Positions 21,396 to 55,464 of a stretch of DNA of 64,000 bases are shown piece by piece. Both the position numbers and the translations under genes were made by a program. This DNA is from an uncultured Acidobacteriota bacterium (GTDB lineage: Bacteria; Acidobacteriota; Vicinamibacteria; Vicinamibacterales; UBA8438). The stretch is taken from assembly GCA_913043225.1 (NCBI GenBank), contig CAJWLU010000014.1, positions 1 to 64,000 of the forward strand, given 5' to 3'. Each line of letters opens with the position of its first letter. The first letter of the stretch is position 1. The notes under the pieces are model-generated. The model was given only the letters and a program-made list of their open reading frames with translations, made no database searches and was not told the origin of the DNA.

Positions 21396-23342
21396 TCAGT
21401 CCAGCTGGGACCCGAGCCAGGCCTCGCGGAACCGCATATGGCTGGAGGTTAGGGTCCGACCGATCTCCTCGAACGCGACCAACCGGAGGCCGGGATGCTC
21501 CTCCGGCGTGACGCGCGCGGTAAGGAGCTCCCCCGCGCGAGCGAACGTCAGCGTCACTGAGCGACCAGGTAGCAACCGGTCACGCGTCTCGCTCCAACGA
21601 CCGGCCGACGAGACCTCCCGGCCGTCGATCGACACGATCACGTCGTCCCGGTCGAGCCCGGCGAGATGGAGCGGCGAGCCAAAAGGCATCGGGCGAGTCA
21701 CCCTCGCGCCGCCCCGCTCGAATCGGAGCGAGGGATCCCCGAGCCAGGCCTGGTCGAGGGCGGTCGGCACCACCGCCACGCCGGCCCGCTCCAACAGCGG
21801 CACGTAGTCGATCACCTCGCGTCCCTCGACGTAGCGGTCGAAGTACTCGTCGGCGAACGACGCGTCGGTCAACTCCTCCAGCGCCGCGCGCGCATCAGCC
21901 ATCGTGTAAGGCCGGTCCACAGCACCCGGCGTCGAGCCTCCTGGCAGTCCGAACTGGCGCCACAGCAGCCGCATGTAGTCGTCCAGCGTCAGGCTGGGCA
22001 CACCGGCCGCGTCGGCGCTCCGAACCCGGAGCAAGAGGTCGAGCCCCAAGCCGAGCGTCTCGCCCCAAGTGTAGTAGGAGATGAAGAGGTTGTCCCAGTT
22101 CGTGGGATCGATCGCACTGGCGGCGTCGGTAAACGGCGCGAGCCGGCTCATCTCGACGGCGGAACGGAACCGCCGGCCCGGCCCCAATCGCACGGTCTCG
22201 ATGGCGCGGCTGAACCTGCCAAGAGTGGCGGGCAGCGACGCCAAACCTGCCCGCTGCAGCGTGAGCGTGCCGTAGTAGTTCGTGTACCCCTCCGCCAACC
22301 AGAGCTCGCCAGAAGCGTTAACGTTCTCGAAGTCGAATGGCTCGAGGGACTGAGGCCGGATCCGCTCGACGTTCCAGACGTGAAAGAACTCGTGTGAGAC
22401 CGACCCGAGCAGCGCTCGGCCCTGGGTACGCAACGATGCCGGCGCGCTGATCACCGTGCTGTTGCGATGCTCCATCGCGTCCCCGGCGGCGGTCGGCAGG
22501 TAATCGGCAATGAAGGTGTAGCGACCGGTCTCGAAACGTGGGAACTCTCCGAAGACCGCCACCATCTCACGGACAATCCGTTCGACGTCGGCCGCATAGC
22601 GGTCGACATCGGCGTCGCTGCCTCCGTGGTGCACCGCCACCCGGAAATCGGGCCGGTAGGTCGAATCTGACGGATCGGTCACCTCGAAGGTCCGGTCGAC
22701 AAACGCGCTGAACTCCGCCGGGCTGTCCAGCAAGTAGCCAACGTTGGGGGCGATAAACCTGAGCTGGTCATCGGTCGGGAACAGCTGCGTCGCCACTCGC
22801 CACGGCTCCCCAGCCGGAGGCACGAAACGCACCTCGATGGGGCCGGTCTCGAGACCGGCCGGCCACACCAGGCTCGCCGGCATGTTGAGGTGGGCATGCG
22901 TCGGGTCGACGGCGAGATAAGTCCCGTCCACCCGATCGCCGAAAATGCGGTAGTAGAAGACCACCGAACCATCGTGATCGGCGATGTCCCACCGGGTCGG
23001 TGTGGTCCGGATCGCCTCGAGCGGCTCGCCGGCGGCGGTACGTGCCTCGACCATGAAGATGTTCTTAGCAAAGTCGTGGCGCGCGTACCGGCCGGGTGAG
23101 GCACTGCTCATCCGCAGACTGAGAGGATCCGCGCCGAGACCGTCGACCTCGAGTTCGACCGCCATCCACCGATGAGCCGGTTCAGGCACACTCACCGTGT
23201 AGCGCACCCTGGCGTCGGTGCTCCCGGCGGTCGACTGGCCACCAGTCGGGACGCTGAGTCTCAGCGCAATAACCGCGAGCACCAGAGCCGCGGCGCCGAG
23301 TCGCCAACCGCGCGCCCGGCGCCAGGCACTGGACCTGATCAT
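21396..23342 (-). CDS. M61 family aminopeptidase with C-terminal PDZ domain
   Basis: SPGRY, MEHRNS, HEFFHVWNVERIRP, LWLAEGYT and a PDZ-like AGLDRDDVIVSIDG. Confidence 0.92.
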   Translation of the reverse strand: MIRSSAWRRARGWRLGAAALVLAVIALRLSVPTGGQSTAGSTDARVRYTVSVPEPAHRWMAVELEVDGLGADPLSLRMSSASPGRYARHDFAKNIFMVEARTAAGEPLEAIRTTPTRWDIADHDGSVVFYYRIFGDRVDGTYLAVDPTHAHLNMPASLVWPAGLETGPIEVRFVPPAGEPWRVATQLFPTDDQLRFIAPNVGYLLDSPAEFSAFVDRTFEVTDPSDSTYRPDFRVAVHHGGSDADVDRYAADVERIVREMVAVFGEFPRFETGRYTFIADYLPTAAGDAMEHRNSTVISAPASLRTQGRALLGSVSHEFFHVWNVERIRPQSLEPFDFENVNASGELWLAEGYTNYYGTLTLQRAGLASLPATLGRFSRAIETVRLGPGRRFRSAVEMSRLAPFTDAASAIDPTNWDNLFISYYTWGETLGLGLDLLLRVRSADAAGVPSLTLDDYMRLLWRQFGLPGGSTPGAVDRPYTMADARAALEELTDASFADEYFDRYVEGREVIDYVPLLERAGVAVVPTALDQAWLGDPSLRFERGGARVTRPMPFGSPLHLAGLDRDDVIVSIDGREVSSAGRWSETRDRLLPGRSVTLTFARAGELLTARVTPEEHPGLRLVAFEEIGRTLTSSHMRFREAWLGSQLD

Positions 23343-23980
23343 GGAGCGGTCTCGAGCGCGTCCCAGACCTGTCGGATAAACTCGTCTTCGGGCACCGCAC
23401 CGAGCACCTCGACGCGGTCGTTGATAACGGTCTTCGGCACACCGGTGACCCGGTACTGCTGAACGAGCTCCGGATACTCAACCGCCGAGATAGTGGACGC
23501 GGTGATCTGGGGGTGCGCGAGCGCGAGACGCTGGGCAAGGCTGACCGCCTTGGGGCAATGGGGTCAGGTGGGGGTGGCGAAGACCTGAATGTCGACCGGG
23601 TCATTCAACCCAGAGAGCCGTTCGCGCGTCTCCTCCGAGAGACCGGGGTCTCCGTCCGCCACCAGCAGCACGGCCTCGACCAGCGAGATCAGCTCGTGCC
23701 CCTCCGGAACACCGTAGAACCGGATCCCGGTGTCCTCCGCCCCGACCACCGCGATCGCTGGCGCCCGGCGGATGCCGGCCCGTTCGGTGACCTCGGTGTC
23801 GAGCAACAGGTTGTACTCCTCGACCGTGATCTGGTCAGAAAAGGCCGCCACCCGCTCGACGATCTGTCGCGCGGGCAGGCAGGTGTCGCAGCCAAAGGTC
23901 TGGGTGAAGAACTGGAGAGTAACCGGCGCGGCGAGCGCTTCGAGCGACGCCTCAAGATCGACGGGACCACGAATGTCCAT
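23339..23980 (-). CDS. Protein-disulfide oxidoreductase (PDO/AhpF N-terminal-like, two thioredoxin folds), probable selenoprotein with Sec at TGA 23564-23566
   Basis: First site CDTC. Reading through TGA gives FATPT-U-PHC-PKAV...YRVTGVPKTVIND...ETAP (213 aa), ending in an ATGA overlap with the M61 gene. Confidence 0.88.
23536..23552 (-). promoter_or_regulatory. Putative bacterial SECIS hairpin
   Basis: CAAGGC-GGUCA-GCCUUG, a perfect 6-bp stem beginning 11 nt after the UGA. Confidence 0.7.
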
Positions 23981-47139: not shown

Positions 47140-48894
47140 GTGCGCTCGATCTCATTCACGACGCGGTGGCAACTCGTCACACTGGCATTGGCCGTCACGG
47201 CAGTGGCCGGTCCGCTGGCCGCCCAGATGCGTCTTCCAGAGCTCAGGTTCTCACCGCTCACCGAGACCGACGCCGTCCATGCCGGCAACACAGCCCGCGT
47301 CAGCCTGGATGTCACGCTGAACGCCGGATTCCACGTTAATTCGGACAGACCGCTCGACCCAACGCTGATCCCGACGGTGCTGACGCTCGAGCCTCCCGAG
47401 GGGATCTCCCTGGACGGCCTGGCTTTTCCAGAGCCAATCCTGGTGGGCGTGGCCGGCATCGAGGAACCCCTCGCAGTCTTCGAAGAGGAGTTCCGGATCG
47501 GCGTGAGTCTCGATCTGGCCGGCGATCTAGCCTCGGGCCTCTATGCCGTGCCCGGCAACCTCCGCTGGCAAGCGTGCAACGACACGATGTGTTTCGCGCC
47601 CAAGAACACCCCGGTGCAGTTCGAGCTCACGGTGGTGTCGTCGGACACGGCACTGGCCACCGTGCACGACAACTTTTTCGGCGGTCTGACGGAAGCCGAC
47701 CTAAGTGACGCGCCGTCACCGGCACCGGTGGCGGCCATGGTCGACAACGTCTCGGTCGTCGCCACCTTGGGCGAGTTCGAGGTGCTCGGGAGCACCGGCG
47801 GCTACCTCAACACCGAGGATTTCCTCGGGTTCATCGAAGCAGCCGAGTCTGGCGAAGGCAATCAGGGGTGGTTCGAGGGCCGCGGACCTTTAGCCATCCT
47901 GGCGCTCATCCTGGTGGGAGGTCTGGCGCTGAATTTGACACCCTGCGTACTGCCAATGATCCCGATCAACTTAGCCATCATCGGGGCCGGCACCCGCGCC
48001 GGGTCCCGCGTGCGCGGTTTCGCCCTCGGCGGGACCTACGGGCTGGCTATGGCGCTCGTCTACGGCATTCTCGGACTGGTGGTTATCCTGACCGCCGGCA
48101 CGTTCGGCACGATCAATTCCTCACCCTGGTTCAACGTCAGCATAGCGGCGCTGTTCGTAGTGCTGGGCCTGGCGATGTTCGACGTCCTGGCGATCGATTT
48201 CTCAAGCCTACAGTCGAAGCTCACGATGGGAGACAACGAGAACGGCTCGTTCATCGTGGCGTTCGGCATGGGGGCGGTCGCAGCGCTTCTGGCCGGCGCC
48301 TGCGTGGCCCCGGTCGTGATTCAGGTCATCGTGTTCTCGAGCAATCTCTATGGCACCGGCACCACCGTCGCGCTGTTGCTACCCTTCTTCCTCGGCATCG
48401 GCATGGCGTTGCCCTGGCCGATCGCCGGCGCCGGTCTCTCGTTGATGCCGAAGCCGGGACCGTGGATGGTACATGTCAAGCATGCCTTCGGCGTCTTCAT
48501 CCTCGGCACGGCCGTCTACTACGGGTACATCGGCTACGGGCTGTTCGCCCAGCGATGGGTCGATCCGACCGAGGTGGCTGACAGCGTGCAGGAACTGCTG
48601 GACGAGGGTTGGTACGCCTCACTCGCGCAAGGACTCGAGGTGGCCGAGGCCGAAGACAAGCTAGTGCTAGTGGATATGTGGGCAACCTGGTGCAAGAACT
48701 GCCTCACGATGGACCAGACCACGCTCAAGGCCCCCCCAGTCGAGGCTGGTCTCGAGGACTACGTCAAGGTCAAGTTCCAAGCCGAGGATCTTGACGCATC
48801 GCCCGCCCGTGAGGTCTTGCAGCACATGGAGGGCATCGGGCTGCCCACGTACGCCATCCTGCGCAAGCGGGCCGAGCCAGCGGCAGGCAACTGA
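47140..48894 (+). CDS. dsbD: Thiol:disulfide interchange protein DsbD (alpha, beta and gamma domains)
   Basis: QACNDTMCF, LTPCVLPMIP, ACVAP and WATWCKNC. Confidence 0.9.
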   Translation: MRSISFTTRWQLVTLALAVTAVAGPLAAQMRLPELRFSPLTETDAVHAGNTARVSLDVTLNAGFHVNSDRPLDPTLIPTVLTLEPPEGISLDGLAFPEPILVGVAGIEEPLAVFEEEFRIGVSLDLAGDLASGLYAVPGNLRWQACNDTMCFAPKNTPVQFELTVVSSDTALATVHDNFFGGLTEADLSDAPSPAPVAAMVDNVSVVATLGEFEVLGSTGGYLNTEDFLGFIEAAESGEGNQGWFEGRGPLAILALILVGGLALNLTPCVLPMIPINLAIIGAGTRAGSRVRGFALGGTYGLAMALVYGILGLVVILTAGTFGTINSSPWFNVSIAALFVVLGLAMFDVLAIDFSSLQSKLTMGDNENGSFIVAFGMGAVAALLAGACVAPVVIQVIVFSSNLYGTGTTVALLLPFFLGIGMALPWPIAGAGLSLMPKPGPWMVHVKHAFGVFILGTAVYYGYIGYGLFAQRWVDPTEVADSVQELLDEGWYASLAQGLEVAEAEDKLVLVDMWATWCKNCLTMDQTTLKAPPVEAGLEDYVKVKFQAEDLDASPAREVLQHMEGIGLPTYAILRKRAEPAAGN

Positions 48895-53191: not shown

Positions 53192-53866
53192 ATGGGTTCG
53201 AAGAAGAATCGGAATCGAGCGGCGCCAACTCCGGTCGCCGAGCCACCGTCGAACGGGGCCCCGTGGCCGCTGATCGCCGTGGTGGCTGTGGCGCTGGCCG
53301 GGGGCGGCATCTACATGGCCACTTCGTCCTCGGGTAGTGGGGACACTGACGGGGCCCAGACGGCGTCTGCACAAATGGCCACCGAGACCGCAGCGCCGGC
53401 CGCTCCGTCGAGCACGACCGCGGCGCCAGGCGCCGCCGCGCCGGCGGAAGCGGAGCCAACGACGACCGCGGCTCGCACGCCACTCCCCGACGACCTGCCG
53501 ATGCCTCCGTTACCGTATGTGCCTCGGGCTGCGGCTGGACCGCCGGAACTGATGCAGCAGGCCTACGTCTTCGCGGCCAAGAACCCGCACATCCTTGACT
53601 ATGTGCCTTGCTACTGCGGCTGTGGCCAGACGGACGGCCACATTGGCAACACCGACTGCTTCGTCGATCGACGGGCGCCGAACGGCGCCGTGGAGGCGTG
53701 GGACACCCACGGCATGACTTGAAGCCACTGCCTAGCTGTCGCGCGTGACGCGATGCAGATGAACGCCCTGGGCGCTTCCCCCTCCGATATCCAGCGAGCC
53801 GTCAAGACCAAGTACGCTTCCCAGTCGGCCTACGCCACCCCGACGCCTCCGGCGCCGGCTAACTAG
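53192..53866 (+). CDS. PCYCGC-motif family protein, probable selenoprotein with Sec at TGA 53720-53722
   Basis: PCYCGC...GH..NTDCF...WDTHGMT-U-SHC-LAVARDAMQMNALGASPSDIQRAVKTKY...TPTPPAPAN (224 aa). The read-through segment completes the family fold. Confidence 0.85.
53736..53758 (+). promoter_or_regulatory. Putative bacterial SECIS hairpin
   Basis: CUG-UCGCG-CGUGA-CGCGA-UG-CAG; the apical loop starts 21 nt after the UGA. Confidence 0.55.
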
Positions 53867-53943
53867 CGGGGCGCGCCCGTCTCGTCCGGCCGTGTGTACA
53901 CCCTCTGCCGCGCCGATCCCGCCGTAGCCCGCTATAATCGCGC

Positions 53944-55464
53944 GTGTCTCCGTCGCGCCCCCGACCCAAGGCGGCCGAGCTTGGCCGGCTGTTCGGTTCC
54001 GTCCGAGCCGGTGTCTATCTCGGTCCGCTGGAGGGTGGTGGTCCCCCAACTGGCGTAAACCCGCATCTGCAACTGATGTTCGGCTACGACCCGACGGCGT
54101 CTCCGCCGCCGGTGCACCCCTTTTCTGCCGATCGTTTTGTCGACCCGCAGGCGCGCGACGCCTTTTTCGCTGAGCTGACCCGCGACGGCGCTGTCGCCGA
54201 CTACCTGCTCCGATTGCGGCGAGCCGACGACACCACCGTCTGGGTCGAAGTTACCGCCACGCTGCATCCGGATCCAGACGGCGGTCCGGCGCAGATCGAC
54301 GCTATCCTGCGCGACGTCAGCGAACGACGGAAGCTCGAAGACCGAGGGCGCAACCTCAGCCAACAGTTCTTGCAGTCCGAGAAGATGGCTGCTCTCGGGC
54401 AAACCGTGTCTGGCGTGGCGCACGAACTCAACAATCCCCTCGCGACGATCCTTACCTGGGCCGAACGTCTCGCCAGCCGCAACGTCGATACCGGGACGCG
54501 CCACGGTCTCGAGACCATCCTGAGCGAAGCCGAACGAGCCGCCAAGATCGTCAGGAACTTGCTGACGTTCGCGCGGAAGCGCAACACAACCCGCGCGCTC
54601 GTTGATGTGAACGTCATCGTGCGAGACACCCTCGCGTTACGCGCTTACGAGCAGCGGGTCTCCAATGTCACGACGATCGATGCCCTAGCGGGTGGCTTGC
54701 CGCAGGTCTTCGCCGATCCGCATCAGGTCAAGCAAGTGTTGCTCAACCTGGTGATCAACGCCGAGCAGGCGATGCTTGCAGCGCACGGACGGGGCACGCT
54801 GGTGACCCGCACCTGGTACGACGACGAAGCCGAGATGGTGATGCTGGAGATCAGCGACGATGGCCCGGGCGTACCCAACGAGGCGCAGAGTAAGATCTTC
54901 GATCCCTTCTTCACCACCAAGGCAGTAGGCAAGGGCACTGGCCTCGGTCTCACGATGGCATATGCAATCGTCGAGGAACACGGTGGCCAGATCTGGCTGC
55001 GCTCCGGCGCAGAGGGCGCGTCGTTTTTCGTGTCTTTTCCGGCAGCGTCGGGCCACCACCGTCCTGCCGCGCCGCCGGTACCGCCGCCGCCCGCCACAGC
55101 CGGCTCGGCTGTGCTCGTGGTGGAGGACGAACCGGCCCTCGCGACCGCCGTGACCGACGCCCTTCGTGACGCCGGCTATCAGGTGGCGCACGCCGAAGAT
55201 GGCCAGGCGGGGCTCGAGCGTATCCGGCAGGACAGATTCGATCTGGTGATCTGCGACCTAAAGATGCCAAGGCTAGACGGACCAGCGTTCTTTCGGGTGC
55301 TCTCGAAGGAGCAGCCGGGGCTGGCTCGGCACGTAGTCTTCGTCACCGGCGACGTGGCCGGGACGGACGCGGAACGGTTCCTGACCGAAAGCGGGTGCCG
55401 TTGGCTTCCGAAACCGTTCCGTCTAACGGATCTGCTGCGCGTCACCGAGGACGTGCTGCGTTGA
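53944..55464 (+). CDS. Cytoplasmic hybrid sensor histidine kinase (PAS-HisKA-HATPase-REC)
   Basis: AHELNNPL, NLVINA, DDGPG, FDPFFTTK, GTGLGL and receiver VVEDE/CDLKMP. Confidence 0.93.
   Translation: MSPSRPRPKAAELGRLFGSVRAGVYLGPLEGGGPPTGVNPHLQLMFGYDPTASPPPVHPFSADRFVDPQARDAFFAELTRDGAVADYLLRLRRADDTTVWVEVTATLHPDPDGGPAQIDAILRDVSERRKLEDRGRNLSQQFLQSEKMAALGQTVSGVAHELNNPLATILTWAERLASRNVDTGTRHGLETILSEAERAAKIVRNLLTFARKRNTTRALVDVNVIVRDTLALRAYEQRVSNVTTIDALAGGLPQVFADPHQVKQVLLNLVINAEQAMLAAHGRGTLVTRTWYDDEAEMVMLEISDDGPGVPNEAQSKIFDPFFTTKAVGKGTGLGLTMAYAIVEEHGGQIWLRSGAEGASFFVSFPAASGHHRPAAPPVPPPPATAGSAVLVVEDEPALATAVTDALRDAGYQVAHAEDGQAGLERIRQDRFDLVICDLKMPRLDGPAFFRVLSKEQPGLARHVVFVTGDVAGTDAERFLTESGCRWLPKPFRLTDLLRVTEDVLR

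Follow-up and report, generated by a model that had tools for sequence, protein, structure and literature searches.

An in-frame TGA codon as a predicted selenocysteine codon in a long-form CYCXC (PF13798) gene of Vicinamibacterales

The CYCXC family and the thiol oxidoreductase CcmH

Proteins of the CYCXC/PCYCGC family (PF13798) have been listed as a predicted selenoprotein family under the entry 'CYCXC family protein (OS_HP4), PF13798, UxxC' in a 2026 review (PMC13188914 Table 1), in which the family is ranked as 'predicted with high confidence' (PMC13188914). The selenoprotein is also tabulated in PMC9312934, and the NCBIfam model NF041379 (OS_HP4_CYCXC, equivalog) carries the name 'CYCXC family (seleno)protein'. 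The row in the 2026 table cites the 2007 Olavius symbiont paper (PMC13188914), in whose main text OS_HP4 is not named (PMC1976440). A second described system to which the family can be compared is CcmH, a membrane-anchored three-helix thiol oxidoreductase (PMC3884852). Here, a PF13798 gene is described from a stretch of 64,000 nucleotides (nt) of an uncultured Acidobacteriota bacterium of the order Vicinamibacterales (contig CAJWLU010000014.1, positions 1 to 64,000; the window). The gene lies at 53192-53866 on the plus strand, and its in-frame TGA codon almost certainly encodes selenocysteine (Sec) at residue 177 by means of SelB and a hairpin in the mRNA.

The gene is a long-form member of the catalogued predicted family and not a new selenoprotein family. 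The novelty implied in an initial annotation of the window was thus not borne out, since PF13798 proteins with a UxxC motif are catalogued in both tables and in NF041379. Its statement that no characterised Sec-containing member was known agrees with the literature consulted, in which the family is only predicted. A search for literature on selenoproteins of Vicinamibacterales, with supplementary tables outside its scope, returned nothing relevant.

Reading frame and in-frame TGA codon

From the ATG at 53192, the reading frame runs over 176 codons to an in-frame TGA at 53720-53722 and continues for 47 further sense codons to the true stop TAG at 53864-53866. Read with Sec at the TGA, the product has 224 amino acids (aa) with the motif H-x3-UxxC, of which Sec177 takes the first position of UxxC, and relatives match it over the full length with one TGA or none. 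Without the read-through segment, the PF13798 score is 56.5 bits and the match ends at profile position 107; with it, the score is 94.5 bits (cut-off 25) and the match reaches position 149 of 153. The initial annotation had described the same frame, with identical read-through text, and had suggested the profile comparison. No second PF13798 gene was found in the genome.

The same annotation had named TGC or TGT in the reads as a sign of assembly error. Contigs from four public runs (two DNA and two RNA libraries) were compared with the region; neither of these codons, nor any letter other than those of TGA, occurs at 53720-53722 in them, and contigs bridging the codon come from runs X3, X8, and X15. 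Because the four runs show no alternative letter and three of them bridge the codon, the TGA is not regarded as an assembly error. Parts of the gene, among them the TGA, are spanned by contigs from the RNA libraries, which is no demonstration of transcription; searches found neither a sigma-70 promoter nor a same-strand terminator. The public runs that cover the region best are marine metagenomes, and the closest named relatives are metagenome-assembled genomes of Vicinamibacterales (Acidobacteriota). The intergenic region 53867-53943 is variable among strains: X8 and X14 carry an insertion of 4 bases and X3 carries one of 28 bases.

If the TGA were a true stop or a nonsense mutation, a product of 176 aa or a pseudogene would result; in a recoded genome it would be read as Trp or Cys. 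The truncated form does stand in databases, where 95 of 120 and 22 of 150 matches listed end directly before the TGA codon as gene callers cut them there. According to the predicted structure, however, termination at this position would delete two of three long helices.

Selenocysteine and cysteine orthologues

Orthologues were surveyed in 101 genomes of the same bacterial family, 97 of which gave a match. An in-frame TGA is present in 36 full matches from seven genera, including the present gene, and 60 full matches from ten genera are free of stops; one further match is an N-terminal fragment. The codon at the Sec position was read in 34 of the stop-free orthologues and is TGC or TGT in all 34. 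Sec and Cys orthologues are about 45-50% identical. The alternation of TGA with Cys codons expected in the initial annotation was thus found, as was the purifying selection that it had expected downstream of the codon: the ratio of non-synonymous to synonymous differences (pN/pS), calculated for 40 pairs of the present gene with the 40 other unique Sec orthologues, is 0.27 after the TGA (codons +1 to +43) and 0.34 for the 30 codons preceding it. Both the retention of the TGA across seven genera and other families and the continued selection past it argue against a true stop.

Loss of the Sec machinery was considered as the origin of the Cys forms and rejected. SelA, the only component searched in the relatives, is present in 98 of the 101 genomes. 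Of the 60 genomes that have a stop-free orthologue, 58 contain it, and the remaining two are 86% and 60% complete. As SelA was found in these 58 genomes, the Cys form is not attributed to its loss. A quick tree (73 rows, 116 columns) groups the Sec and the Cys forms and needs two changes. An ancestral Sec with one reversion to Cys would fit this tree, and no direction of change is claimed because support for the key branches is 79-86. Two records titled Deltaproteobacteria (L045) and Gammaproteobacteria (L063) contain the gene at 93% and 78% identity, respectively, and fall within the Vicinamibacterales group; these are probably mislabelled or mis-binned contigs and not cases of transfer.

The hairpin downstream of the UGA

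A hairpin identified as the upper stem-loop of a bacterial selenocysteine insertion sequence (SECIS) lies at 53738-53754 on the plus strand and is extendable to 53736-53758. It consists of five Watson-Crick pairs, a G-U pair, and a 5-nt loop; its core, UCGCG-CGUGA-CGCGA, occupies 53739-53753, with GU at loop positions 2-3. Published constraints on bacterial SECIS elements include a loop of 3-9 nt, a stem of 4-16 bp, and a G in the first two loop positions (PMC13188914), as well as a spacing of 16-37 nt and a minimum free energy of at most -7.5 kcal/mol (PMC13188914). The present hairpin lies within these limits, with a loop of 5 nt, a stem of 5-7 bp, G at the second loop position, a UGA-to-loop distance of 21 nt, and a minimum free energy of -10.3 kcal/mol for the folded RNA segment 53730-53765.

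Stability as such was rejected as evidence. Compared with shuffled sequences in four folds, z ranges from -1.5 to +0.8, which is not above chance, and a simple SECIS-like rule is passed by 343 of the 3239 TGA-ended open frames of at least 170 aa in the genome, that is about one in ten. That the hairpin is not significant on its own would suit a true stop. Its significance derives instead from the retention of the stem in Sec-containing relatives.

For this comparison, 80 unique core sequences (45 Sec and 35 Cys forms) were used. Every one of the 45 Sec forms retains all five Watson-Crick pairs, vs 3 of the 35 Cys forms; these counts come from sequences related by descent and are not independent trials. 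Even among Cys forms that share an identical six-residue peptide, the stem is intact in only 2 of 14. Codons +6 to +10 have zero synonymous variation in 41 Sec orthologues, with four of these five codons being 4- or 6-fold degenerate; nearby conserved 4- and 6-fold sites in the same orthologues do vary (entropy 0.28-1.74). Of the Sec sequences, 40 have G-U and 5 have A-U as the outer stem pair, and a two-sided change was found in none of them. An identical stem occurs in three TGA genes (L140, L142, and L144) from two other families of the order. The stem-loop reported 3' of the UGA in the initial annotation is present and conserved together with Sec, and a stem that is frozen solely in the TGA forms speaks against a true stop.

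Selenocysteine machinery of the genome

The genome encodes SelA (440 bits), SelB (314 bits), and SelD (292 bits), all above curated cut-offs. A tRNA-SeC(UCA) is called by ARAGORN, in agreement with Rfam RF01852 (69.9 bits vs a gathering score of 47), and a tRNA-Trp(CCA) is likewise present. All four of selA, selB, selC, and selD, which the initial annotation had proposed to look for, were thus found. The classification of the UCA tRNA as tRNA-Sec by both programs argues against recoding. Together with the conservation of TGA, downstream selection, and stem, this makes a true stop, a nonsense mutation, or a recoded Trp or Cys codon highly improbable.

The window contains a second hidden selenoprotein gene at 23339-23980 on the minus strand, with an in-frame TGA at 23564-23566. 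It encodes a protein disulfide oxidoreductase (TIGR02187, 236 bits vs a cut-off of 185) with UxxC in the second thioredoxin domain and a SECIS-like hairpin, and belongs to an already known selenoprotein family.

Protein architecture and kinship with CcmH

A basic N-terminus precedes a single hydrophobic segment (residues 27-45, 53270-53326; Kyte-Doolittle 19-residue maximum 1.9), which would act as signal anchor or signal peptide. A lipobox Cys is absent, the first Cys being residue 140. The segment is followed by a low-complexity linker rich in Ala, Thr, and Pro (53327-53491) and by the PF13798 domain (53540-53848), for which profile match, alignment, and model indicate three long helices with a beta-hairpin insert. 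Judging from these sequence features, the N-terminal segment and the flexible linker probably tether the protein to the inner membrane on its outer face. Of the membrane-anchored extracytoplasmic selenoprotein proposed in the initial annotation, Sec decoding and a probable N-terminal anchor in form of the hydrophobic segment are supported, and the location is what we infer from them.

In the alignment with Cys-rich CcmH domains of acidobacteria, the PCYCGC motif (residues 139-144, 53606-53623) falls on their CxCGC loop. Across an alignment of 114 family members, C140, C142, C144, H150, C156, and C180 do not vary, and conservation at H173 and U/C177 is at least 90%. The UGA falls on the first Cys of the family CxxC, as had been suggested from the window, and homologues have Cys at the position of Sec177. 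The AlphaFold model has a confidence (pLDDT) of 96 and contains the three long helices and a short beta-hairpin.

Comparisons of distant relatives, folds, CcmH profiles, and neighbourhoods were made without two unpublished genomes (G148 and G124), on which none of the conclusions depends. With hhalign, alignment to 13 acidobacterial CcmH domains gave a probability of 95.1 (E 3e-8), vs 0.5 for a reversed control and 3.5 for the best of 30 column shuffles. The top Foldseek match of the model is CcmH 2HL7, which is also the top natural protein in a wider search. The present protein has no match to PF03918, and 2 of the 114 family members match it at E 0.067 or worse; PDB sequence searches yielded no meaningful match. 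A CopZ match (E 0.03) and saposin matches were set aside as insignificant. In sum, it is moderately shown that the PF13798 domain is a distant relative of the three-helix thiol module of CcmH. A gene at L121:1477-3420 on the minus strand (G000:C5) encodes a fusion of CcmF with a CcmH domain that is rich in Cys (CxCGxxxC...CxC) and not of the LRCxxC type.

Possible functions and genomic neighbourhood

In the proposed mechanism, SelB with Sec-tRNA would bind the hairpin 21 nt past the UGA at 53720 and insert Sec177 into a protein whose N-terminal segment and linker would anchor it on the outer side of the inner membrane. U177-x-x-C180 at the start of helix 2 would cycle between selenolate and selenenylsulfide in an extracytoplasmic thiol-disulfide relay, while the CYCGC, His, and Cys residues would either coordinate a structural metal, for instance Zn, or be engaged in additional disulfides. 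A DsbD-type protein would supply the reducing equivalents. We infer the redox chemistry, the metal, and the partner in this scheme from the protein and its surroundings. Genes for DsbA/DsbB or redoxin adjoin some distant members (L149, L147) and were counted in favour of a redox relay. The full statement, i.e. a CcmH-related selenoprotein of the CYCXC/PCYCGC family acting in such a relay, is given a slightly better than even chance.

A DsbD-like thiol:disulfide interchange gene is located at 47140-48894 on the plus strand, 4.3 kb upstream; its product is a possible electron donor for thiol proteins of the envelope. Directly downstream, a hybrid kinase with PAS, HisKA, HATPase, and receiver domains is encoded at 53944-55464 on the plus strand. 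All 20 orthologue loci examined have it as the next gene, and the three paralogue loci do not; this adjacency may be plain synteny. Around distant members, 19 loci with short flanks were surveyed (92 of 124 open reading frames scanned), and their neighbours are mixed, comprising DsbA/DsbB, redoxin, DUF4198, FTR1/Fur, XdhC/MobA, a transporter of the AcrB/CusA family, and tetratricopeptide repeat (TPR) proteins.

The main rival to the redox role is that the same selenoprotein binds soft metals in the envelope, where Sec would be one of the ligands and the protein would act as a chaperone, buffer, or sensor of Cu(I), Zn, or Fe. The six conserved Cys/Sec and two conserved His residues would fit such a role, and distant members adjoin genes for an AcrB/CusA-family transporter (L145), FTR1 and Fur (L151), and DUF4198 (L146, L147). 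A PCYCGC lipoprotein adjoining a gene for an Fe3+ binding protein has also been reported (PMC13068155). However, no metal transport gene was seen adjoining the present gene, the CopZ match does not reach significance, and kinship with CcmH favours thiol chemistry. Metal binding is regarded as less probable than the redox relay.

A dedicated function in cytochrome c maturation, as a stand-alone second CcmH reducing the CXXCH motifs of apocytochromes, would agree with the CcmH likeness in profile and fold. CcmI-type proteins carry TPRs, and genes for TPR proteins flank the short-form members L157, L163, and L165. Against this stand the CcmF-CcmH fusion that the genome already has, the position of Sec outside the canonical active-site loop, and the absence of ccm genes beside the present gene and in the short flanks of the 19 distant loci. 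This function is considered improbable.

In a broader and tentative extension of the thiol-disulfide relay, PF13798 would be a branch of the CcmH fold that stands on its own and has gone unrecognised. In the Vicinamibacterales envelope, the long form might then serve as a CcmH-like reductase or redox sensor that uses selenium, its Sec occupying a new catalytic position at the beginning of helix 2; one group of genera would have reverted to Cys while keeping the Sec machinery. If true, this would provide a first mechanism for PF13798 and a natural Sec/Cys pair with which to test the benefit of selenium outside the cytoplasm.

CYCXC paralogues were observed as three near-identical Sec copies within 18 kb of G002 (L116; TGA at about 4937, 7743, and 13537), one Sec copy in G083 (L115), and one Cys copy in G035 (L117). 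Each comes after a gene for an exported protein of about 400 aa and lies near genes for transporters of the RND type; from reading the open reading frames, these loci look like a peptide-export cluster. The SECIS stem is also retained in the Sec paralogues, where the outer pair is A-U.

Comparison with known systems

Recognition of the long form corrects a systematic annotation error, with truncation affecting most of the 120 closest matches listed and the long form escaping the NCBI model that would flag its Sec. It also offers a test system, as Sec and Cys orthologues occur in one bacterial family with nearly ubiquitous SelA and an unusually clean SECIS footprint. The likeness to CcmH and the natural Sec/Cys pairs are a testable start for the function of the PF13798 family.

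The features that define CYCXC (OS_HP4) are all found in the present protein, namely a PF13798 score over the gathering score, a CYCxC motif, and one Sec in UxxC. Its NF041379 score is 66.7 bits for the full length and 71.3 bits for the core, below the cut-off of 90, because the model represents the short form: all seven short forms tested score above it (96-116 bits), whereas the long form L142 fails. The present gene resembles L148, an NF041379 member from another acidobacterial family (104.5 bits), in having the TGA at the same place in H-x3-UxxC. In contrast to the short form, it has an insert of about 12 residues before the last His, which is a beta-hairpin in the model, as well as a long linker and a predicted non-lipoprotein anchor. 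With Cys-type PF13798 proteins such as the PCYCGC lipoproteins of Bacillales, it shares the domain and the conserved Cys/His set, but it differs from them in that Sec replaces the Cys that opens CxxC, its mRNA contains a SECIS, and a lipobox is lacking.

Like CcmH (PF03918; PDB 2HL7), and notably its Cys-rich acidobacterial type, the protein is predicted to have the order helix 1, Cys loop, helix 2, and a helix 3 with G-x-S/T-x-x-x-I; the profile probability is 95, and CcmH is membrane-tethered, as is predicted for the present protein. Unlike CcmH, it contains extra His and Cys residues and the insert, its predicted anchor is N-terminal instead of C-terminal, Sec lies outside the canonical CxxC loop, and the gene has no ccm operon context.
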